Assembly: GCA_024405755.1 (NCBI GenBank)
Contig: JAKSOD010000004.1
Span: 991 to 64,990, forward strand
Length of the DNA: 64,000 nucleotides
Reading direction: 5' to 3'
DNA from: Clostridia bacterium
GTDB lineage: Bacteria > Bacillota > Clostridia > Oscillospirales > CAG-272
The position numbers were made by a program, and so were the translations under genes. The notes under the pieces were generated by a model. The model searched no databases and was not told where the DNA came from. It was given only the letters and a program-made list of their open reading frames with translations. Shown here piece by piece: positions 4,403 to 14,395 of this stretch (positions are counted from its first letter, which is position 1; each line of letters starts with the position of its first letter).

Positions 4403-4448
4403 GGCTGTTAAAAACCTCGTTCCCGAGGTTTTTAACAGCCAATTTTTT
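4403..4448. terminator. Intrinsic terminator hairpin after typA; member of the conserved GTTAAAAACTCG hairpin family
   Basis: ggctgttaaaaacctcg-ttcc-cgaggtttttaacagcc forms a perfect 17-bp stem and is followed by aattttttat. Confidence 0.8.
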
Positions 4449-4536: not shown

Positions 4537-4580
4537 TGACAGAAAACTGTCAGTAGAAAAAATCCATGCGGTGATAAAAT
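4537..4580 (+). promoter_or_regulatory. Possible operator plus extended -10 promoter for the tail-fibre cassette
   Basis: The inverted repeat TGACAG-aaaa-CTGTCA lies at 4537-4552. A TGaTAAAAT extended -10-like element lies at 4572-4580. There is no clear -35. Confidence 0.3.
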
Positions 4581-4590
4581 TTATTACGGA

Positions 4591-6927
4591 ATGGCAAAAA
4601 CATCATTTCTGCCTAAAAAAGGCAGAATCAACAGAAAGGAAGAAAAATTGAGAAGAATTAGAATGAGAGCCACCGGATTCCGACTTGATCCCGACTGGGA
4701 TATAGCGGGAACGGTAGGAAGCAGGGGAGTAGCAAGTATTTCCTTTGATTTCAGCAACGAATGGCAGGGACTGGCAAAGCGGCTGACGTTTTATCCGAAG
4801 GGTGAAACGACAGGAGTGTCGATCCTTATGCAGAGCGACGACGAGGAAATACTTCTTCCGCCCGAAGCATATTCAAAACCCGGGGAGACAACATTTGTTA
4901 TCGACGGTGTGGGAAACAACGGAGTCAAACTGATCACACTGAGGGGCAGACTACGTATTCTCGATACAGCGCCTGCGGGCGGAGGCGAGCCTTCGGAGCC
5001 GTCTCCCACGGAAGTTGAACAGATAATGCTTGCCTTGTCGGAACTGACGGATAAGACCGAAAGACTTGACGGCAAGCTTGATCCCGTAGAGGGAGATGCC
5101 GACATGGAAGACAATATCGCGGTGCTGACTGCCGACGGAAAGGTCACGGACAGCGGTCTTTCGGTGGATGATGTTCTGACGGAACATCCGCAGACCGATG
5201 TGGAAGATGATACGACATTGTCCGTAAAACTTGATAACGGCGGGAATTTCGGCGTGATAAGTGACATTGAGCGTGATGAAAACGGTCATGTGAAGTCTGT
5301 GGAGTACGGTGAAATTGAATTGCCGCGCCGTCGTTCCATTCATATCGGAACCGAGCCGAAATATTCCGTTCCTGTCGGAACCGAGTACATTTACGACCAA
5401 GGAGAATATGAGATCGGTATTACCGGAAGATATACCGTTGAAAACAATAATAGTATGGCATCGGGGATCAGAACTCAGTATTACATTACGACACCCGGAG
5501 ACGATACTCCTGCACTTGTTGCCGTAATGTTTATGACCCAGAAGTTCACCTCATACATCAGAAAGGGACAGATCCTTCATGTCTTAGGTAATAATGTTAA
5601 GGTAACCCTTGAAAGTTATGCATCCGGAGAGAACGGTGACGTTCCCGAATACCGCGAGGGAGATTATTTCCTGAACAGCGAAAGCGGCGATCTTTTTGTC
5701 TGTACGGCTGAGCAGGAAAGTGATGCTCTTGCCGAATGGGAATACACCGGAAAACTTCCGGAAAACCTTCCGGTGGCGACACCAACCGTGCTTGGAGGTG
5801 TGAGGCCCGTGGCAAAGGAAGATTATATGACTGTGCCCGTCGGCATTGACAGCACGAACGGAAGACTTTACACCGTACTTTGGGGATCTTCTTCCGTAGA
5901 TTCATGGGCGGATGTTCAGAGAATTGTCCGTTCGGGACTTGCGTCTCAGGTATTTGAAATCGGAGACCAGCTGACCTGCGAGAAAAACGGAGAGACTCTG
6001 ACATGGGATATCATAGGTTTTGATCACGACATTCCCGCTGAACAGGGATTGGAACACAGTATGACATTGCAGCTCCATTCCGCTATCGGTGCTGTACAGT
6101 ATGACGCGGGTGAGGCAGTTTACTTCGCCGAAGAAGGACTTGCGGCAGGAACGTATCATTTCAAACTGACCAACGGATATCTTACCTCATACGGAGGAGG
6201 AAGAATGGTGGAGTTCACGGTTGATTCGGAAATACCTGCCGGAGCGTTGATATGCTTTGAATGGCCTGATAATACCGATGCTTCCGATGCAACGGTAAAG
6301 ATTTATTCTGACCGTACATGTTCCGTTTGCCTTGATTCGGTAAATGTTGATTACGGAGAAGGCGGAACGCTGCTTGAAAATACCAATAATGCAAAAATGG
6401 TCAGGTGCGGTAACGGAAGATGGCGTGATTCCGCCATCAGACAGTATCTTAACAGTACTGATGAAGCAGGCGAAGTCTGGACACCGAAAAACGATTTTGA
6501 TCTTGCTCCCGTGTGGGCGGATACTCTCCCGGGATTTCTCAACGGAATTGACCCGGATTTTCTTAGTGTTATCGGAAATGTCAGAAAAAAGAGCCAGATA
6601 AACACAGGATCGGAAACGGGTCTTGAAGAGACGGAAGACAAAGTGTACCTTCTTTCGTTGTCAGAGGTTTACGGTAATCCTGACGATCCTGATTCTGAAA
6701 TGCCGTTTGAGTATTATTCTGAAAACTCACAACTGACAGAGCCCGGAAACGGGGAGAATGCAGTGAGAAAAAAATACTACGGAACGGAAAGTGTGATCTG
6801 GCTTCTGCGTGACGGCAGACAGGCAAATCAGAATGTTATTATGTTTGTAAACAAAAACGGAACTGTTGGGTATACAAATGCCAACGGATCTGTCGGTTAC
6901 TGTATCCCCGCATGCTGTATTGTGTAA
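4591..6927 (+). CDS. Phage tail-fibre / baseplate-upper-protein-like protein with a DUF6273-like C-terminal domain
   Basis: The ORF is 778 aa. The N-terminus (RATGFRLDPDWDIAGTVGSRGVASISFDFSNEW...TFVIDGVGNNG...LRGRLRILD) resembles phage BppU-type fibre N-domains. The C-terminus has ...RWRDSAIRQYLNS...KVYLLSLSEVYG...IWLLRDG..., as seen in DUF6273-type domains. An alternative start is M25 at 4663. Confidence 0.6.
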   Translation: MAKTSFLPKKGRINRKEEKLRRIRMRATGFRLDPDWDIAGTVGSRGVASISFDFSNEWQGLAKRLTFYPKGETTGVSILMQSDDEEILLPPEAYSKPGETTFVIDGVGNNGVKLITLRGRLRILDTAPAGGGEPSEPSPTEVEQIMLALSELTDKTERLDGKLDPVEGDADMEDNIAVLTADGKVTDSGLSVDDVLTEHPQTDVEDDTTLSVKLDNGGNFGVISDIERDENGHVKSVEYGEIELPRRRSIHIGTEPKYSVPVGTEYIYDQGEYEIGITGRYTVENNNSMASGIRTQYYITTPGDDTPALVAVMFMTQKFTSYIRKGQILHVLGNNVKVTLESYASGENGDVPEYREGDYFLNSESGDLFVCTAEQESDALAEWEYTGKLPENLPVATPTVLGGVRPVAKEDYMTVPVGIDSTNGRLYTVLWGSSSVDSWADVQRIVRSGLASQVFEIGDQLTCEKNGETLTWDIIGFDHDIPAEQGLEHSMTLQLHSAIGAVQYDAGEAVYFAEEGLAAGTYHFKLTNGYLTSYGGGRMVEFTVDSEIPAGALICFEWPDNTDASDATVKIYSDRTCSVCLDSVNVDYGEGGTLLENTNNAKMVRCGNGRWRDSAIRQYLNSTDEAGEVWTPKNDFDLAPVWADTLPGFLNGIDPDFLSVIGNVRKKSQINTGSETGLEETEDKVYLLSLSEVYGNPDDPDSEMPFEYYSENSQLTEPGNGENAVRKKYYGTESVIWLLRDGRQANQNVIMFVNKNGTVGYTNANGSVGYCIPACCIV

Positions 6928-6939
6928 AAGGAGTAAAAA

Positions 6940-7122
6940 ATGAAATACTATTCAAGAAAAAACAGCTTGGTCAAAGAAAGGATCGCTAACGAAGAAGTTC
7001 GTGAACGACTTGAAAAAATAATCAGCGACCTTGATTATATTGCAATGCTGACTGACGTAGACCTCGGTGAAGTTGAGGAAAACGAAGAATACAGTACAGA
7101 AAACGGCAGGGAGGAAAACTGA
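6940..7122 (+). CDS. Small acidic hypothetical protein (60 aa) in the phage-like cassette
   Basis: An AAGGAG RBS lies 7 nt upstream. The gene is tightly packed between the fibre gene and the XkdX-like gene. It has no TM segment and no recognised domain. Confidence 0.5.
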   Translation: MKYYSRKNSLVKERIANEEVRERLEKIISDLDYIAMLTDVDLGEVEENEEYSTENGREEN

Positions 7123-7123
7123 A

Positions 7124-7306
7124 ATGACGGATAAAACGACTGACGGAATCAATGCCGCACACAGCCCTATGTTTGAAAAAATCAGAGGGTATTTCAGACG
7201 CGGATTGTGGAATGAAATGCGGATTAAAAACGCCGTGATCAAGGAGAAGATCAGTACGGATGAATTCTTTGAAATCACGGGGAAAACATTCTCTTATATT
7301 ATATAA
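7124..7306 (+). CDS. XkdX-family phage protein (60 aa)
   Basis: MFEKIRGYFRRGLWNEMRIKNAVIKEKISTDEFFEITGK matches the XkdX pattern (F..I+.yY..GlW....v.naV.kg.It.eey.eITG). The ATG at 7124 follows a GGGAGGAAAA RBS and lies 1 nt after the upstream stop. Confidence 0.7.
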   Translation: MTDKTTDGINAAHSPMFEKIRGYFRRGLWNEMRIKNAVIKEKISTDEFFEITGKTFSYII

Positions 7307-7323
7307 AATAGGAAGGAATAATA

Positions 7324-7965
7324 ATGGCAACACGCTTTTTTCCGGGTTATGATTCATATAAAATAACGTCTCCGTTCGGGGATGTCAGATCGTGGGGAGT
7401 CCACGAAGGAGTGGATCTCGTGGCTGTAAATTCATCCGGAAGTGCCTGCACTGACAGGATCATTGCTTTTGACAGCGGTATCGTGATTGACACCGGGTAC
7501 AATTCAATATCGGGATATTACTGTAAAATAAAGCACAACGACATATATACCACTCTTTACTGTCATATGAAGGTCAATACAGTTGCAGTAAAGAAAGGGC
7601 AGAAGGTAAAAAAAGGTGACGTTCTCGGATATATGGGCAGAACGGGACGCGCCACGGGTGCTCATCTTCACCTCGGACTCTCAAAATACGGTACTTATGT
7701 CGATCCGGTGGATTATTTTGAACGTGATCTTGAAAAAAATGATTCCCTGACGGTGAACTGCCGACGTATGCGCCTCAGACGCGGGTCAGCGGGGGACGAA
7801 ACTGCCCTTTTGCAGCATTTGCTAAATATTCACGGGGCAAAACTTGAAGCCGACGGAGTTTTCGGTGAACTTACCGAATCTTCAGTAAAGAGTTTTCAGT
7901 CATCTCATGGACTTGATGCCGACGGCGTCGTCGGTGTCTTGACGTGGAATGCTCTGATGAATTAA
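7324..7965 (+). CDS. M23 peptidase fused to a peptidoglycan-binding domain (endolysin-like)
   Basis: The M23 signatures are HEGVDL and GRATGAHLHLGL (HxH). The C-terminal segment ALLQHLLNIHGAKLEADGVFGELTESSVKSFQSSHGLDADGVVGVLTWNAL is a PG_binding_1-type repeat. Confidence 0.85.
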   Translation: MATRFFPGYDSYKITSPFGDVRSWGVHEGVDLVAVNSSGSACTDRIIAFDSGIVIDTGYNSISGYYCKIKHNDIYTTLYCHMKVNTVAVKKGQKVKKGDVLGYMGRTGRATGAHLHLGLSKYGTYVDPVDYFERDLEKNDSLTVNCRRMRLRRGSAGDETALLQHLLNIHGAKLEADGVFGELTESSVKSFQSSHGLDADGVVGVLTWNALMN

Positions 7966-7968
7966 AAG

Positions 7969-8016
7969 ATCGGACTGCCGCAAATGGTCAAATCATTTGC
8001 GGCAGTCCGATTTTTT
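7969..8016. terminator. Bidirectional intrinsic terminator between the lysin gene and the convergent LCP gene
   Basis: atcggactgccgcaaatg-gtcaaat-catttgcggcagtccgat forms an 18-bp stem and is followed by a T-run. Confidence 0.8.
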
Positions 8017-9418
8017 ATTTATTGATCGTCTGCTGCCAGAGAGCAATGGTCTTGGTCATATTACTGATCCTGATCATGGATCTTCCCTTGGCATCACGGT
8101 AATAGTACCAATATGGAGAGGTAGGGATTGTAAATGTATTTACATTATACGTCATATAATTCGGAGATTTAAGAATGTATGATGTGAATGTCGTAAATGT
8201 AATATCCGTTGTCACGAGCGGGAACAATTGATTGAGAAGATCGTTCAATTCTCCTATGCTCTTGGTCTTGAGTTTATTGAAGATCGCGGTGATTGCTTTG
8301 CGCTGTCTGTCGGTACGGCCCCAGTCACCGTTTCCGGAGGAACGGTTTCTGCAATGGGCAAGGAGTTGTGCCCCATTCAGATGTACGACCTGACCTTCAA
8401 GAGAAATATCAATTTTGGTGCTTCCGCTTCTTCCGTTTATGTATTCGATTTCCTGAGTGGAGAGTCCTATGTCAATGCCGCCGAGAATATCAAATACTTT
8501 CTGAACGCTTCCGAAATCAACTTTAATGTAATTGTCGATCGTGATTCCGAAATTACGCTTGATCGTATTGATGAGAAGAGAAGTACCTCCGCTTGAATGC
8601 GAAGCATTGAGTCTGTTGTAGAATCCGCCGTTTGCGGGGATATAAACATATGTATCGCGGAGCATGGAAGTTAGTGTTATCGATCCGGTCTTATCGTTAA
8701 TCGAAACGATGATCATTACGTCCGAGAGTCCGTATTTACCGGTGAGGTCACGTCCTATCAGAAGGATATTTTTGATTTTCCCGTTTTTAGGATCAATAGG
8801 ATTCGATGGCGTAAGTGGAGTTGTATCGGGAGCGGGAGTAACATTAGGTCTTGCGGTGGTCGCGGGAGTAGGTTGCGTTTCCGGAGCGGTAGTCTGTGGT
8901 ATCGGTTTTGTCGTTCCCGTGGAAGTGATCGGAGTTGTTCCGTATGATGTACTTTCAGCTGATTCGGTTTCGGTATGTACCGGGAGAGTCTCCGGAGGTA
9001 CGGGAAGAGTCTCCGGAGGAGTCGTGACAGTATCTGGTGTAGTGGGATCTTCCGGGACGCTTGCTTCGTCCGTTTCTCCGGCAAGAATACGGGATACTTC
9101 ATCCCAGTCAATGTAATATTCGCTGTCGTCGCTTTCTCCTCCGGTAACGTATGAAACATCGCCGAATTCGGGCTCATAGGATTCGATCTCCTGCAAGCGG
9201 CTCTCGAGATCTTCGACCGACATGTTTTCACCTTCTGCAAGGGTAACGATGGTTTCGTAATTCATCTTAGAGTAAAAGTTGTACATAATTCCGCCGGCGA
9301 TAAGGACTCCCAGCAGAATGATTCCGAGGATGACGAGCAGAATTATAATTAGAACTTTTTTTGTTTTGCTGCCCTTTTGGGACTTTTTATTTTCAGAGTT
9401 CATTTTTTCGGTATTCAC
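8015..9418 (-). CDS. LytR-CpsA-Psr (LCP) family glycopolymer ligase with a Pro/Thr-rich linker
   Basis: It has an N-terminal TM segment and a PT-rich linker. The LCP core reads ILLIGRD...SDVMIIVSINDKTGSITLTSMLRDTYVYIP...NASHSSGG...NYIKVDFGSVQKVFDILGGIDI. The start is either GTG 9418 or ATG 9403. Confidence 0.9.
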   Translation of the reverse strand: MNTEKMNSENKKSQKGSKTKKVLIIILLVILGIILLGVLIAGGIMYNFYSKMNYETIVTLAEGENMSVEDLESRLQEIESYEPEFGDVSYVTGGESDDSEYYIDWDEVSRILAGETDEASVPEDPTTPDTVTTPPETLPVPPETLPVHTETESAESTSYGTTPITSTGTTKPIPQTTAPETQPTPATTARPNVTPAPDTTPLTPSNPIDPKNGKIKNILLIGRDLTGKYGLSDVMIIVSINDKTGSITLTSMLRDTYVYIPANGGFYNRLNASHSSGGTSLLINTIKRNFGITIDNYIKVDFGSVQKVFDILGGIDIGLSTQEIEYINGRSGSTKIDISLEGQVVHLNGAQLLAHCRNRSSGNGDWGRTDRQRKAITAIFNKLKTKSIGELNDLLNQLFPLVTTDITFTTFTSYILKSPNYMTYNVNTFTIPTSPYWYYYRDAKGRSMIRISNMTKTIALWQQTINK

Positions 9419-9452
9419 CTCGTTTGTTCTTGTGAATGAAATGGTATTCTTA

Positions 9453-10700
9453 TCAGTCGTTGATGATGGCTGCCCATTTCTGCATCATTTCATCTTTTTT
9501 GTCGCTCTTGATTTCAAGCCAACTCGTTTTATGTCCGGAAGGTTCCCATGTGTCAATAAAGTAACCGTCCATGGGAAGTCTTGTGGAGACAATTTCATAT
9601 TTGGAGTATGTGGGCGCATTCCAGATAAAAGAGAGGCAGTCTGTGCGTGTCATATCGGTGGTGATAAGAGGCAGACACTTGTCAAGAATCCCGACAAGTT
9701 GACCGAGACTCAGATCCTTGACTTTGTTGAATGCGAAAGTGAGAACGTCTCTTTGACGTTCGGTGCGTTTGTAGTCTCCGCCGGAGAGTTTACGCGCACG
9801 GGCATATATAAAGAGAGCGTCGGCGTTTAAGTGGATCTCTTTGTCTGCACTGGCTTCGGGAATTGATTTGGTAACCGTGAGCTTGAAGCCTTCATTTTTG
9901 CAGTTCTTGTATATTTTCTGAAGGTTGGGGTCGTTGATCAGACCATCGTTTACATATTTGATCTCTGCAAGATTAAGTGTCATATCAAGGCCGCCGAGAA
10001 GCTCAAAGACTTTGACGAAATCGGCGTATTTTGCACGGCAGTATTTGTCGATTCTGATCCCGAAGTTTTCCTGAAATGTTTTGATCAGCGTTCCGACACC
10101 ACCGTAAGAGTGAGCACTGTTGATCTTGTTGAATTCTTTGGCGTCACTGATATAAACATAGGTGTCACGCATAAAAGATGTGAGAACAATACGTTTTTGG
10201 GTTGGATTGATCGATACTACGATCATAGCGTCGGATCTTCCGTTTGAAGTATCTTTAATTGCATCTGTGCCTATCACAAGGATATTCATTACATCTGAAC
10301 CGACGGGAGTGTGAGGAATATCATCAGGATTGAAGTTGGAGGCTTCTTCAAAAGTTGTGATCGTTGAAATGATTTCCTCGACGGTAGTTGCGGCAGGGGT
10401 GGTTTCTTTGCTTCCTGCGGTTTCGGAAGAGATCACTTCGCCGGATGATGTATCGTCGGGAGTTTCGGTGGCATCGGAAGCAGATGTGTTGTCGGCAGCA
10501 GTGGACTCTTCGATTTCACGGTCGCTGTCCTGTGGGTCGATGTCCCAGCCGGAGTCCGGGTGAAAGTCTGTGTTGCTCAGGTCAACGGTCTCGTAATTCA
10601 TTTTGCCGTAGAAATGCTCAAAGACTATCACTCCTGCCGTAATGCCGACAATCAGCAGTACGGCAAGAGCGATAATTACGATTTTGATTGTCTTTTTCAT
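9453..10700 (-). CDS. LCP family glycopolymer ligase (second paralog)
   Basis: It has a TM segment and an acidic S/T-rich linker. The core reads NILVIGTD...RSDAMIVVSINPTQKRIVLTSFMRDTYVYI...NSAHSYGG...LGGLDMTL. An AAGGAG RBS is present. Confidence 0.9.
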   Translation of the reverse strand: MKKTIKIVIIALAVLLIVGITAGVIVFEHFYGKMNYETVDLSNTDFHPDSGWDIDPQDSDREIEESTAADNTSASDATETPDDTSSGEVISSETAGSKETTPAATTVEEIISTITTFEEASNFNPDDIPHTPVGSDVMNILVIGTDAIKDTSNGRSDAMIVVSINPTQKRIVLTSFMRDTYVYISDAKEFNKINSAHSYGGVGTLIKTFQENFGIRIDKYCRAKYADFVKVFELLGGLDMTLNLAEIKYVNDGLINDPNLQKIYKNCKNEGFKLTVTKSIPEASADKEIHLNADALFIYARARKLSGGDYKRTERQRDVLTFAFNKVKDLSLGQLVGILDKCLPLITTDMTRTDCLSFIWNAPTYSKYEIVSTRLPMDGYFIDTWEPSGHKTSWLEIKSDKKDEMMQKWAAIIND

Positions 10701-10771
10701 TTGGGATTCTCCTTGTTTTTGCTGCGATAAAGAATATGTGCTTTATAATTGTATGTGTCAGACGTCGGAGT

Positions 10772-12760
10772 TTATTTAACATATGACGGTTTTTTTATCG
10801 GCGCGTCTTCCGGTCTGACAAACTGAGGAACGATAGATTTGATTTTTTCCTCGATTTTTTTGGCACGGACGTCTGGAGAAATGGTTTCATCACAGGCTGT
10901 TCTTTCGAGTTCACGAACGGAAGTAAAGAGAAAATCACGGTCAAGCAAAGTTGGACGGCTGACAAATATTTTATCGTGTTCTGTTGCACTGAGTCCTTCT
11001 TCCGCGGTAAGAAGCTCTTCATATAGCTTTTCACCGGGACGCAGACCGGTATACTCTATTTTTATGTCATAATCAACTTCATATCCCGACAGACGGATAA
11101 GTTTTTTCGCAAGGTCGGAGATTTTTACGGGTTCACCCATATTGAGCACGAAAATCTCTCCTCCGTTTGCCATTGATCCGGCAGCAAGAACAAGCTGTAC
11201 AGCTTCCGGAATGGTCATAAAGAAACGGGTAATTTCAGGATGGGTTACGGTGACGGGACCGCCCATTTCAATCTGTTTTTTGAAAAGAGGGATAACGGAC
11301 CCGTTTGATCCGAGGACGTTGCCGAAACGAACGGCACAGAATTCGGTTTTGCTTCTGCCATTGAGGGATTCAACGATAAGTTCGCATACACGTTTTGATG
11401 CGCCCATTACGTTGGTGGGGTTAACGGCTTTATCGGTGGATATCATAATGAAACGTTCAGCTTCGGCGGCGATCGCTGCTTCCGCGGTGTTGAGTGTCCC
11501 GATTATGTTGTTTTTTACGGCTTCTGTGGGGGATACTTCCATCAGAGGAACATGCTTATGCGCTGCGGCGTGAATCACGAGTTGTGGTTTCAGGTTACGC
11601 ATAAGAGCAAACAGATGTGAACGGTCTCTGACGGAGGCAATATGTACTTCAAGATCAAGTTTGTCGCCGTATGTACGAATAAGTTCCTGCTGGATATCGT
11701 AGGCATTGTTTTCATAAATGTCTACGATAATAAGTTTGCGCGGACCGAAAGCGGCGATCTGCCGGCAGATCTCGGACCCGATCGACCCTCCTCCTCCGGT
11801 TATCATTACGGTGCGTCCGGAAATATATCCGGAAATAGAGTCGTTATCAATGTTTATGGGTTCTCGTCCGAGAAGTTCTTCCGGAGTGATGTCGCGGAGT
11901 TTCTGGATGCAGTCAACTTCATCTTCCCGGAAATCATAAAGACGCGGAAGCATTTTGACCTCGCATCCGGTCTCGGCACAGTAATCGAGTATCGTTGCGC
12001 GTGTCTTGTTGTCCGCCGTTGGTATTGCAACGATAATCAGATCGATTCTGTATTTCTTTGCAAGACGCTGAATGTCTTTATTCGTTCCGCAAATTTTTAA
12101 TTTCCCGATATAATAACCGATTTTTGATTCGTCTTCATCAATTCCAACAATGGGAACAAGCGGGCAGTTTTCCGTATTGTTGATCTCATTGAGCAGCATG
12201 GTACAGGCGTTTCCGCATCCGATTATCATAACACGTTTTTTCTGATCGGTTTCTTTTGAAATCAGATAATCCCTGAAAGCACGGAAAGCAAGGCGTGTGC
12301 TGACGAGAGCAATGGCTATAAAACAGGCAACAAATACGAAGAAATAAAGATGTATCCGTTCTACCCAATTTAAAATGGAAAACAGTCTTGCAATTCCGAA
12401 CACGGCGACACCCGACAGAACAGCCGCAACAGTACAAGAAAGGAATTCACGGTACTGTGCATAACGCCATAAACTCCGGTAAAGACCGAAGGCAGTGAAT
12501 ACCACAAGGTATACAGGGAGTATAATTGCCAATAGGCTGAAATACAGTTTTGCATCATAGTAATAATCGAATCTGCATACAAAGAAGCAGGCAGTATATG
12601 ATGCTAAGACGAGCATAAGATCCGCAAGATACAGCAGTATTACTCTATAATGATTTCTAATGTGCTTTGACAGTTCTTTCATAACACTGAACTCACCTTT
12701 CATGGTGATTTTTGTGACGGTACGCTTTTTGGCGGTGTAACGTGCGCGTTTGATCATCAC
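10772..12760 (-). CDS. Membrane-anchored polysaccharide biosynthesis protein, CapD/EpsC/PglF-like NDP-sugar 4,6-dehydratase
   Basis: Four N-terminal TM segments are followed by two Rossmann regions (VMIIGCGNA; VMITGGGGSIGSE) and ...AAHKHVPLME...STDKAVNPTNVMGASKR. The start codon overlaps the upstream stop (GTGATG). Confidence 0.85.
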   Translation of the reverse strand: MMIKRARYTAKKRTVTKITMKGEFSVMKELSKHIRNHYRVILLYLADLMLVLASYTACFFVCRFDYYYDAKLYFSLLAIILPVYLVVFTAFGLYRSLWRYAQYREFLSCTVAAVLSGVAVFGIARLFSILNWVERIHLYFFVFVACFIAIALVSTRLAFRAFRDYLISKETDQKKRVMIIGCGNACTMLLNEINNTENCPLVPIVGIDEDESKIGYYIGKLKICGTNKDIQRLAKKYRIDLIIVAIPTADNKTRATILDYCAETGCEVKMLPRLYDFREDEVDCIQKLRDITPEELLGREPINIDNDSISGYISGRTVMITGGGGSIGSEICRQIAAFGPRKLIIVDIYENNAYDIQQELIRTYGDKLDLEVHIASVRDRSHLFALMRNLKPQLVIHAAAHKHVPLMEVSPTEAVKNNIIGTLNTAEAAIAAEAERFIMISTDKAVNPTNVMGASKRVCELIVESLNGRSKTEFCAVRFGNVLGSNGSVIPLFKKQIEMGGPVTVTHPEITRFFMTIPEAVQLVLAAGSMANGGEIFVLNMGEPVKISDLAKKLIRLSGYEVDYDIKIEYTGLRPGEKLYEELLTAEEGLSATEHDKIFVSRPTLLDRDFLFTSVRELERTACDETISPDVRAKKIEEKIKSIVPQFVRPEDAPIKKPSYVK

Positions 12761-13581
12761 TGATCTTTTGTGCCTTTGTTATTATTGCCGTAGTTCGAAT
12801 AATACGAATTGTATCCGTATTTCGACGAACGGCGATAACGATAATATCCGTAATTATAGCGGTAGCGATAGCGGTAACCTGATCCGCCGCCTCCGCTTGA
12901 AGTATCTGCAATCATAGTACCGAGAATATTGGTATCGGACAATTTGATGCTGCTGATAGCATGTGAGAGATCTTTGTGCAGGCAGTAGTCCTGACGTATA
13001 TTCAGAATGATTCCTGCTGTGTTGTGGCTGAATGTCAGCGCGTCTGTGACGACGGTGACAGGGGGAGTATCAACGATAACGTAGTCATAGACACGGCACA
13101 CGATATCAAGAAATTTGATCATTGTCTGAGAACCCAACAGTTCGGAGGGATTGGGCGGGATAGGACCGGAAGTGATGAGGTCAAGTCCGGGACGGACATT
13201 ATGGCGTATTGTGGAGGCAAGAGTGTTAAGTTTCAAAAGAATAGTGGAAAGTCCCGATTCGCTGTTATCCTGCTCAAACATGAGGTGCTGAGTGGGTTTT
13301 CTCATATCAGCGTCAATAAGAAGCACCCGGCCTCCTGTCTGACCGAAAGATAAGGCAAGGTTTGCGCTGTTGACGGATTTGCCTTCGTTCGGCACGGAAC
13401 TTGTCACGACCATGGCATTTCTGTGCGGAACATTCTGATCAATTGCGGCAATTGAGAATGTCACATTTGAACGAAGTGTTTTATATGCTTCCACAATAGC
13501 GAAAGGTGTATTTTCATTCAGAAGTACATTTGGGGAATGTCCCTCTCTTCTAGAATTATTCTTGTTGTTTCGCTTTTTCAT
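12757..13581 (-). CDS. Bacterial tyrosine (BY) kinase, CpsD/CapB/Wze-type, with an Arg/Tyr-rich tail
   Basis: The Walker A is VTSSVPNEGKSVNSANLA and Walker A' is VLLIDADMRKP. The C-terminal tyrosine cluster reads GYRYRYRYNYGYYRYRRSSKYGYNSYYSNYG. I set the start at the internal ATG 13581 (MKKRNN...). Confidence 0.85.
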   Translation of the reverse strand: MKKRNNKNNSRREGHSPNVLLNENTPFAIVEAYKTLRSNVTFSIAAIDQNVPHRNAMVVTSSVPNEGKSVNSANLALSFGQTGGRVLLIDADMRKPTQHLMFEQDNSESGLSTILLKLNTLASTIRHNVRPGLDLITSGPIPPNPSELLGSQTMIKFLDIVCRVYDYVIVDTPPVTVVTDALTFSHNTAGIILNIRQDYCLHKDLSHAISSIKLSDTNILGTMIADTSSGGGGSGYRYRYRYNYGYYRYRRSSKYGYNSYYSNYGNNNKGTKDQ

Positions 13582-14344
13582 CGTAATAACCCCTTTCTGT
13601 CGGTTTGTGACTTGTTGAGAAGTGAGGAATCTCACCGAGGACGAGCATTCCGTAATCAGCGGTAACTTCATCTTTGCTGTGCACTCTTGTATCGAATATG
13701 TTGAGCATTATTACAACAGCTGCTATCAGGAATGCCACGATGAGACCGTACGTGAAAGGTTTGCGGTATGAGGGCAGGTTGGATTTTATTGCAGATGAAG
13801 TGGTTTGCAGGACTTTTGCATATCCTGAATGAATAACTTCTTCAACAATCTCGGGGACCGCATTGCAGGCTGCATTTGAAATCATAACTGCGTCGCTGGC
13901 GGTGGGGCATGATACGGTTACAGACATAACAAAGGTTTCACTGACGGAAGCGAGACGGATCATTGATCCGATTCTTTGTTGGGTGTAAACAACTCCGCTT
14001 GATCCCACAAAAACACCGTCTTCCGTACCGTCCATAGCATCGAGATTTTTCATGATGATATCTGTGGAAGCATCCATGGTAATCATGACAGTCAGCAGGT
14101 TAATAAGTCCCTGAGAAGCCACTGCGGTGGCTGTGACGAATGGGGTAGTAGTTTCGCCTTCCGTGGCTGAGGCGATGGATGGATATACCAACACGTTGGA
14201 AGACGCGGTATAATTGGGTACTTTTTTTGATTCGGTAAGGTAGTACGATCCCATAAAAACAATAATGAAAGCCAGGATCATGATCCATGCACGGCGAAGC
14301 AGGTCAAGTGCAATGGATTTTACGTTGATATGAATGCTGTTCAA
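13556..14344 (-). CDS. Wzz/CpsC-type chain-length / BY-kinase modulator membrane protein
   Basis: The ORF is 262 aa with two TM segments flanking an extracellular domain. It lies immediately upstream of the kinase, in the classic CpsC-CpsD arrangement. The start is TTG. Confidence 0.7.
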   Translation of the reverse strand: MNSIHINVKSIALDLLRRAWIMILAFIIVFMGSYYLTESKKVPNYTASSNVLVYPSIASATEGETTTPFVTATAVASQGLINLLTVMITMDASTDIIMKNLDAMDGTEDGVFVGSSGVVYTQQRIGSMIRLASVSETFVMSVTVSCPTASDAVMISNAACNAVPEIVEEVIHSGYAKVLQTTSSAIKSNLPSYRKPFTYGLIVAFLIAAVVIMLNIFDTRVHSKDEVTADYGMLVLGEIPHFSTSHKPTERGYYDEKAKQQE

Positions 14345-14395
14345 AGTATCTTTGTCCTTTCGTTTATTTTTTTATTGAATAAATCGGAGAAAAAA

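Follow-up and report, generated by a model that had tools for sequence, protein, structure and literature searches.

The window analysed here is a 64-kb stretch of DNA (G000:C122:991-64990) from the 2.12-Mb assembly of a Clostridia bacterium. Between typA and a convergent LCP gene it carries a cassette of four intact open reading frames (ORFs) on the + strand (4591-7965), encoding a large fibre-like protein, an acidic protein of 60 amino acids (aa), a member of the XkdX family and an M23 peptidase with a PG_binding_1 domain. The cassette is very probably a selected and co-regulated fibre-plus-endolysin unit, the holin of which is encoded elsewhere in the genome. It is not an orphan, as it has an operator in common with a distant holin operon on contig C112. 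The features at the locus are as follows (positions in the window).

4403..4440, + strand: typA terminator (17-pair stem, then a T run), left edge of the unit
4537..4554, + strand: palindromic operator TGACAGAAAACTGTCAGT, centred at about -42.5 from the predicted transcription start; found in 21 of 21 anchor-domain loci
4572..4580, + strand: predicted extended -10 box TGATAAAAT without a usable -35, read from the sequence
4588..4599, + strand: leader motif GGAATGGCAAAA, conserved as DNA across most related loci
4648..6927, + strand: predicted fibre or receptor-binding protein (RBP), 759 aa from TTG 4648 (754 aa from ATG 4663); Pfam, PHROG, AlphaFold and Foldseek
4663-4962, + strand: immunoglobulin (Ig)-like anchor of the fibre
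about 5011-5076, + strand: coiled-coil helix of the fibre
between coiled coil and head, + strand: beta-rich shaft of the fibre
about 5890-6924, + strand: confidently modelled head of the fibre, with DUF6273 within it at 6400-6921
6940..7122, + strand: 60-aa acidic protein, putative partner of the DUF6273 head, from its identity to phage proteins of 52-53 aa
7124..7306, + strand: XkdX-family protein, 60 aa (PF09693)
7324..7965, + strand: M23 endopeptidase with PG_binding_1, predicted cytoplasmic endolysin (Pfam, motifs)
7967..8013, both strands: two-way terminator common to the cassette and the convergent LCP gene (20-pair stem, T runs on both strands)

Gaps of 12, 1 and 17 nucleotides (nt; 6927/6940, 7122/7124 and 7306/7324) separate the closely spaced four ORFs, and the unit is closed by the typA terminator on one side and by the terminator shared with the LCP gene on the other, all as described in an earlier sequence-only reading of this DNA. 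The same reading had reported no other phage genes. This holds for the 64-kb window and not for the genome, in which a head operon is located on contig C57 and the holin-like operon on C112. Profile searches of the whole genome gave no match to TerL_ATPase, Phage_portal, HK97-type Phage_capsid, PhageMin_Tail or Sipho_tail, and no paralogue of the fibre was found in the assembly. The only genome match to Terminase_6N was on C57, and all seven integrase matches were on contigs other than C122. Of the families tested for capsid, portal, terminase, tail and integrase proteins, none was present on C122; att-like repeats were not searched for. The GC content of the cassette is 46.5%, that of the genome 47.6%.

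For the fibre gene, the start had been placed at ATG 4591 (778 aa), a codon that falls within the conserved leader DNA motif. Gene callers begin the gene at ATG 4663 (754 aa). With TTG 4648 as start, the N-terminus MRRIRMRATGF aligns with MKDIYIKAEGF of homologues and the ribosome-binding site is better placed; because of this alignment, TTG 4648 (759 aa) and not ATG 4591 is probably the start of the gene.

The domain assignments made earlier for the C-terminus of the fibre and for the third and fourth ORFs were recovered by Pfam. DUF6273 (PF19789) was matched on aa 604-777 of the large protein (5e-13; 49.6 bits with a cut-off of 23.5), where phrog_19280 covers aa 435-777 and the C-terminal 345 residues or so gave a confident AlphaFold model. 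The XkdX ORF was well above the threshold (PF09693; 1e-10, 41.9 bits with a cut-off of 23.5), stands in the usual place behind a fibre gene and is the sole match to the family in the genome. The fourth ORF matched Peptidase_M23 (4e-23) and PG_binding_1 (9e-15) in Pfam and many endolysin families in PHROGs. The acidic protein matched no Pfam or PHROG family.

The order typA, fibre, small ORF, XkdX, M23 with PG_binding_1 and two convergent LCP genes was also found in the metagenomic contigs L001-L005 and L101. The typA genes of these contigs are 91% identical to that of the window, all four cassette genes are intact, and the fibre homologues in the typA-LCP interval are full-length and only 47-54% identical. 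The ratio of nonsynonymous to synonymous substitution rates (dN/dS) was calculated for L005 versus L101, the closest pair and the sole one with unsaturated synonymous sites. It amounted to 0.13 for the fibre, 0.24 for the 60-aa protein, 0.13 for XkdX and 0.06 for the M23 protein; the flanking LCP gene gave 0.11.

An operator shared with a distant holin operon

The palindrome upstream of the cassette was present in all 21 loci that encode the N-terminal domain of the fibre, referred to as the anchor. Its form is GACAG-N4-CTGTC, usually TGACAG-N4-CTGTCAGT, with 12 exact copies, seven with one mismatch and two with two mismatches. A -10 box is located 23 nt after CTGTC in 20 of the 21 loci, in most of them with TG two bases ahead, and none is evident in L064. 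The -10 box of the window was read by eye and is absent from the output of a consensus promoter scan. A palindrome at about -42 without a usable -35 would correspond to the layout of an activator-dependent promoter. Most of the 21 loci have the leader motif GGATGGCAAAA immediately downstream of the predicted start of transcription, even when the gene is in another reading frame; the motif is divergent in L060, L062 and L065 and was not seen in L064. No Rfam match was obtained for the leader.

When this genome was searched for the palindrome with one mismatch together with a -10 box, the only meaningful match was a site on C112, in front of an operon of two small genes (G000:C112:2889-3505, locus L086). 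The site has one mismatch, with the same CTGTCAGTAG half and TATATAAT as at the cassette. The product of the first gene (74 aa) has a membrane helix at its N-terminus as well as a coiled coil, and its PHROG matches are weak, one of them to a holin family. The second gene product (68 aa) has two hydrophobic helices and matches the holin family phrog_297 (2e-4). The operator precedes the holin operon in at least 10 of 14 fetched loci, being exact and at the same spacing in eight of the 13 others and carrying one mismatch in one more; CAAGTCGGGTACA takes the place of the leader motif of the anchor loci. In the 38 genomes of the genus, a strict 14-base pattern was found only in anchor loci, holin loci and one recF-gyrB spacer, and the reversed control gave no match. 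Furthermore, the holin-like gene occurs in 16 of the 38 genomes, exactly the 16 that possess an orthologue of the M23 gene (Fisher's exact test, 4.5e-11, with related genomes not being independent).

The spacer site (L100; G001:C48:11983-12000) is an exact operator between recF and DUF370-like, gyrB and gyrA genes of one species, with TATAAT at the same spacing, and may be either a chance occurrence or an additional member of the regulon. The islet on C112 adjoins a putative endonuclease-III-like gene, called from its N-terminal sequence.

The M23 protein contains the motifs HEGVD (HxxxD) and HLH (HxH) and has M23 relatives in the PDB. No signal peptide or N-terminal hydrophobic segment was seen in its sequence. 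Lacking a signal peptide to reach the wall, it needs a holin as partner, and it is predicted to be a holin-dependent endolysin.

Of the two origins considered in the sequence-only reading, a retained unit of RBP and lysin is supported. The other, the last remnant of a decayed prophage, was refuted: close relatives hold the same cassette and no full prophage at the site, and their ORFs are intact and under purifying selection. Plain decay drifting towards loss would suit a gene content equal to the end of a late operon with no phage genes adjoining. It is hardly credible for four genes that five lineages have preserved intact at 45-82% identity, that show dN/dS values of 0.06-0.24, that have kept their promoter and operator and that co-occur perfectly with a distant holin, with no integrase on C122 and a GC content like that of the host.

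The anchor family and the siphophage module

The N-terminus of the fibre had been described as BppU-like. The term finds support in fold, through a weak match, and not in sequence. An AlphaFold model of the anchor (18 sequences) reached values of 76-91 in the predicted local distance difference test for residues 1-100 and contains a helix at 117-138. The top four PDB matches of the anchor model in Foldseek were BppU chains of 4v96 (probability 1.0, E-values of 7e-4 to 1.3e-3), and BppU of 4v96 was found at rank 2 with the full-length fibre model. In BppU, the upper baseplate protein of phage TP901-1, as in the model of the anchor, an N-terminal Ig-like beta-sandwich is followed by a long helix. 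The anchor family combines a constant N-terminus with variable distal parts, as would be expected of a docking domain. Among viral structure models, the head of the fibre matched DUF6273 proteins of uncultured sipho- and podoviruses (8.5e-29 to 4e-16), so that a structural likeness of the large protein to phage fibres is present by fold in both the PDB and the viral models.

Other species of the genus match the fibre only over its first 150 residues or so. With a profile, the anchor was detected in 23 of the 38 genomes, most commonly as a protein that consists of nothing else and is about 148 aa long (Ig-like domain and short coiled coil). In this usual form, its gene is directly followed by one for an M23 protein with PG_binding_1, which is 50-57% identical to the lysin of the window. 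In another form, the anchor lies within proteins of 190-290 aa that have a SAYEVAV..GFEGSEEEWL motif, which we take to be phage-fibre-like. A variant was observed in G018 (L018 2973-9100), where the anchor is the N-terminus of a 790-aa protein without a Pfam match, followed by small ORFs and a lysin with Amidase_3 and PG_binding_1; an ECF-type sigma factor is encoded two genes upstream, and Metallophos tails occur on distant members of the family.

In five species, the pair of anchor and lysin genes is found 6-14 kb downstream of typA on the same strand and therefore in an old neighbourhood. Its neighbours in other species are genes for lipoproteins and secreted proteins. BNR, apiosidase and F5/8-C proteins encoded next to the pair were considered as tailspikes and were rejected as virion parts because of their signal or lipoprotein peptides. 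These neighbourhoods bear on the proposal, made earlier, of a link between the cassette and the adjacent genes for cell-wall polymers, which is not supported, as the pair of the other species does not lie beside LCP genes. In a stronger form of this proposal, the cassette would remodel the cell wall together with the LCP and capsule genes, the M23 protein being a housekeeping autolysin and the large protein its partner for binding wall polymers. The cassette does adjoin two LCP genes and the capsule locus in this genome and in four relatives. Such a role is nevertheless very improbable, given that the anchor-M23 pair of the other species lies among unrelated lipoprotein genes, that no signal peptide can be read from the sequence of any of the four proteins, that the lysin tracks a holin, which is a phage route out of the cell, and that cassette and LCP genes are convergent with a terminator between them.

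Beyond the genus, the anchor family comprises 2,718 cluster representatives at E <= 0.001 among 1.84 billion proteins. Pfam has no match to the domain in any of 104 scanned members. In all 150 listed representatives the anchor is N-terminal, with the exception of one repetitive protein and two fragments. The tails attached to it are variable (100-1,900 aa), with collagen in 16 of 86 members and, in addition, YadA, SASA, GDSL and metallophosphoesterase. Among 50,697 phage records, the anchor was found only in Butyrivibrio virus Ceridwen, where it heads a 708-aa protein placed after the genes for tape-measure protein, Dit and Tal (hidden Markov model, 8e-17). A tblastn search of these records with the anchor of the window gave no match, nor did a word-based search with the anchor piece alone; with a distant member of the family as query, tblastn gave one marginal phage match, which was confirmed afterwards by the hidden Markov model. 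The anchor appears to be a virion-docking type of domain; in a real phage it holds the position of a baseplate protein or RBP.

The remainder of the fibre has relatives of a different kind. Sequence homologues of the DUF6273 head (about 490 aa, 43% identical) are encoded within complete prophages in the order capsid, connectors, tape-measure protein, Dit, Tal, DUF6273 protein, 53-aa protein, XkdX, holin, CHAP lysin and recombinase. The 60-aa protein of the cassette has a counterpart of 52-53 aa (35-42% identity) in siphophage late operons, where it is encoded between the DUF6273 protein and XkdX, and the XkdX protein is 43-46% identical to phage XkdX proteins in the same gene order. The cassette had been likened to the end of a Firmicute late operon; this applies to its DUF6273, small protein and XkdX part, which has the same order in siphophage operons such as that of the metagenomic prophage L103, with lysis genes following. 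The phage DUF6273 proteins differ in having no anchor domain, and the phage operons have their own holin and CHAP lysin and lie within prophages holding capsid, tail and integrase genes. The fibre accordingly reads as chimeric, with an anchor found throughout the lineage joined to a head module of phages. Because the counterparts of all three adjoin in that order in complete prophages, the DUF6273 head, the acidic protein and XkdX are assigned to one phage module; in this lineage, the module appears to have come to lie between anchor and M23 gene by insertion.

A comparable arrangement is known from PBSX of Bacillus subtilis, a domesticated, defective phage that packages DNA and whose late end consists of xkdV, xkdW, xkdX, xepA, xhlA, xhlB and xlyA. 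Both systems have a fibre gene and small genes of the XkdW/XkdX type, and then a membrane/coiled-coil (XhlA-like) protein, a holin and a lysin. The genes of PBSX, in contrast, lie together in a single myovirus-like cluster of about 28 kb, while the XhlA-like/holin pair is unlinked here. Moreover, the PBSX lysin is an amidase and not an M23 peptidase, and the small protein of the window has no match to XkdW in Pfam.

The head operon on contig C57

A head and packaging operon flanked by host genes on both sides is located on C57 (G000:C57:21027-28373; 7028-14374 of locus L032). It encodes, in this order, a short ORF, TerL (Terminase_6N), a 591-aa protein, a P22-like portal matching PF16510, a scaffold-like protein, a capsid protein and a 147-aa protein. 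The 591-aa protein is fast-evolving and has a weak match to a virion structural family. The capsid protein is 45% identical to those of phages AP45 and D6E. Its gene is present in 29 of the 38 genomes of the genus (60-77% identity) and is single-copy in 28 of these 29 (13 of 14 high-quality ones). In the 12 genomes examined for it, the gene order is preserved and the 147-aa gene is invariably the last; tail genes were considered downstream of it, where ordinary host genes are found in 12 relatives. In the order as a whole, capsid homologues were detected in 57 of 151 genomes, including all sampled members of several families. A capsid homologue in another genus of the same family (G058:C3:83207-84040, L070) has two in-frame stops (TAG, TAA), and the particle genes of that genome may be decaying.

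In 13 species, the promoter of the head operon carries three to four direct GAGAC/GATAC repeats with a spacing of about 10-11 bp, immediately followed by a TAAAAT box (G000:C57:20850-20920; L039-L050). This suggests control by a different activator that would bind direct repeats. Two GAGACT repeats ahead of the palindrome are present in only one subgroup of the anchor loci.

Proteins of Aeribacillus phage AP45 were compared with the whole genome in search of tail genes, and only the capsid was matched, with no relative of either sheath or tube. This result bears on the idea that the cassette is a fibre-lysis set kept by the host in the service of other phages, decorating or releasing the tails or particles of infecting or resident helpers. 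The similarity of its DUF6273, small protein and XkdX parts to modules of genuine temperate siphophages (35-46% identity) and the use of the anchor family by true phages such as Ceridwen would fit such a set. We regard it as quite improbable, since the genome offers no match to PhageMin_Tail or Sipho_tail, no relative of the AP45 sheath or tube and no second capsid or portal family. In addition, the cassette has its own host-side promoter and operator, long conserved across species, and a resident system therefore fits better than dependence on passing phages.

Anchor and capsid were found together in 20 of the 38 genomes of the genus, the anchor only in two, the capsid only in nine and neither of them in seven (Fisher's exact test, 0.02). 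The two genomes with the anchor only are 74% and 82% complete. The seven genomes without both are also without lysin and holin.

In other families of the order, anchor fibres are encoded next to head genes. Family f17, in which all seven genomes carry the capsid, has the closest capsid outside the own family (48-55% identical). In its member G108 (L116 633-9181), one strand encodes an anchor fibre, a 234-aa and a 68-aa protein, portal, scaffold, capsid, two small gene products and a protein like that of 591 aa. In G082, of the same family, 6.5 kb separate the anchor fibre from the portal downstream of it. G168 and G113 (family f22) have the anchor fibre about 5-7 kb upstream of the capsid. In all three genomes it is encoded on the strand of the head genes and no more than about 5-10 kb away. 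In G168 (L083 344-13771), an endolysin gene lies between those for TerL and portal. The contiguous loci L116 and L083 have the anchor fibre in line with portal and capsid; it is 650 aa long or, in a collagen-like form, 279 aa. The palindrome is absent from the contiguous clusters of these other families.

Comparison with known gene transfer agents

The gene transfer agent (GTA) of Faecalibacterium prausnitzii, FpGTA, is encoded by a head operon I and, about 125 kb away, an operon II with baseplate, fibre, RBP, holin and endolysin; its particles are about 40 nm in size, carry approximately 8.5 kb of host DNA and contain proteins of both operons (Borodovich et al., Nat Commun 2026, PMC12946183). 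The genome studied here likewise belongs to the Clostridia of the gut and has a chromosomal fibre/RBP and lysis locus far from a conserved head operon with a P22-type portal, likewise without an integrase or replication gene. The genes are distributed over three sites: C122 carries the cassette and no integrase gene, C57 has the head operon and C112 the holin operon. In FpGTA the holin is part of operon II, whereas here it is found at the third locus, tied to the cassette by the common operator. The "RBP anchor" of FpGTA was matched by its authors to PDB 8egr_L, which appears in neither list of the 50 best PDB matches obtained for the two models of this study. New in comparison with FpGTA are the lysin of another family, the three-site layout, the defined operator and the captured receptor-binding module of siphophage origin.

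A dispersed organization is also known from RcGTA of Rhodobacter capsulatus, a siphovirus-like agent of the Alphaproteobacteria with the regulators CtrA and GafA. It is likewise a domesticated phage, and its loci for head spikes, tail fibres and holin/endolysin are apart from the main structural cluster. These dispersed loci are co-regulated with the structural cluster. RcGTA belongs to a phage lineage unrelated to that of the particle considered here.

With moderate confidence, the cassette is taken to serve the attachment and lysis of an FpGTA-like particle that would be built from the C57 operon. Several observations weigh against this assignment. The palindrome was not found before any of 13 head operons; as the head promoter differs and lacks it, a single regulon for heads and fibres is not shown. 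Nine genomes of the genus have the capsid without the anchor, and at the level of the order the capsid is present in 11 of 25 anchor-positive genomes compared with a base rate of 57/151, which is not significant. The anchor does not track the capsid type across the order because ordinary phages use it as well. In most species the anchor is the 148-aa protein without a receptor-binding part. The match to the BppU fold is weak (template modelling score of about 0.33, E-value about 1e-3) with generic FN3 domains close behind; Pfam BppU_N (PF10651) was matched neither by the fibre of the window nor by any of 104 members of the family (18 close and 86 distant ones), and neither the anchor profile nor the 778-aa protein matched any PDB chain sequence. 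The assignment of the holin depends on weak PHROG scores. The lysin of FpGTA operon II is an M15 peptidase and that of the cassette an M23 peptidase with PG_binding_1. Finally, the organism is an uncultured Clostridia metagenome-assembled genome from the ruminant hindgut, with relatives from the hindgut of goat, sheep, cattle and yak.

Some of these points would be accommodated by a self-standing module for programmed lysis or the targeting of kin that has no link to a capsid. It could serve altruistic autolysis, setting free DNA or public goods, for which the cell would retain holin, M23 lysin and a fibre of phage origin. Alternatively, the fibre could be a released adhesin or, in the manner of a bacteriocin, direct the lysin at cells nearby. 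The sole regulatory link found connects the cassette with the holin operon and not with the head operon, two genomes of the genus have the anchor without a capsid match, and anchor and capsid do not co-occur across the order. A module of this kind is still unlikely. The anchor appears to be a virion-docking domain and has the position of a baseplate protein or RBP in a real phage, and it lies beside head genes in G108, G082, G113 and G168. The seven genomes of the genus lacking the capsid lack anchor, lysin and holin too, the two genomes with the anchor only are incomplete, and the published FpGTA has the same split layout.

According to the GTA assignment, the genes would belong to a domesticated, podovirus-like particle of the FpGTA kind that packages DNA and is encoded at no fewer than three chromosomal sites. 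A dimeric regulator would bind TGACAG-N4-CTGTCAGT at about -42 and switch on the cassette jointly with the C112 operon, the latter supplying a membrane/coiled-coil protein and a two-helix holin, while the C57 operon would provide capsid, portal and terminase. The fibre would be trimeric and its N-terminal Ig-like domain and coiled coil would dock on the particle as BppU does on the baseplate, leaving the DUF6273 head to bind a surface receptor. The acidic 60-aa protein and XkdX, which would have come with the head from a siphophage, probably aid in folding or maturation of the fibre. The M23/PG_binding_1 enzyme would wait in the cytoplasm until the holin opens the membrane, upon which the wall would be cut and the particles released. 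More tentatively, and a little short of an even chance in our estimate, this can be extended to a multi-locus GTA-like system run by the whole genus of uncultured Clostridia of the ruminant gut, in which attachment and lysis form a palindrome regulon of their own, heads are supplied by a third locus with a direct-repeat promoter, and, in the lineage of this genome, the 148-aa anchor has captured the receptor-binding module of a siphophage (DUF6273 head, acidic chaperone-like protein and XkdX).

The first description of GTA-like particles from gut Clostridia dates from 2026, and little is known of their parts for attachment, lysis and control; the locus is a concrete candidate for these parts in a new lineage. 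The sharply defined operator can be used to fish out the regulator. The anchor family, with its approximately 2,700 cluster representatives and no Pfam model, marks fibre genes in phages and phage-derived particles of Clostridia. In genome annotation, "orphan" islets of fibre and lysin genes should be compared with head and holin loci far away in the genome before being dismissed as debris of prophages. As XkdX and its small acidic partner move together with one fibre head, their likely role is narrowed to the assembly of fibres. If the proposed capture is true, it would retarget the particle and would represent a clean natural experiment on the function of the XkdX family.

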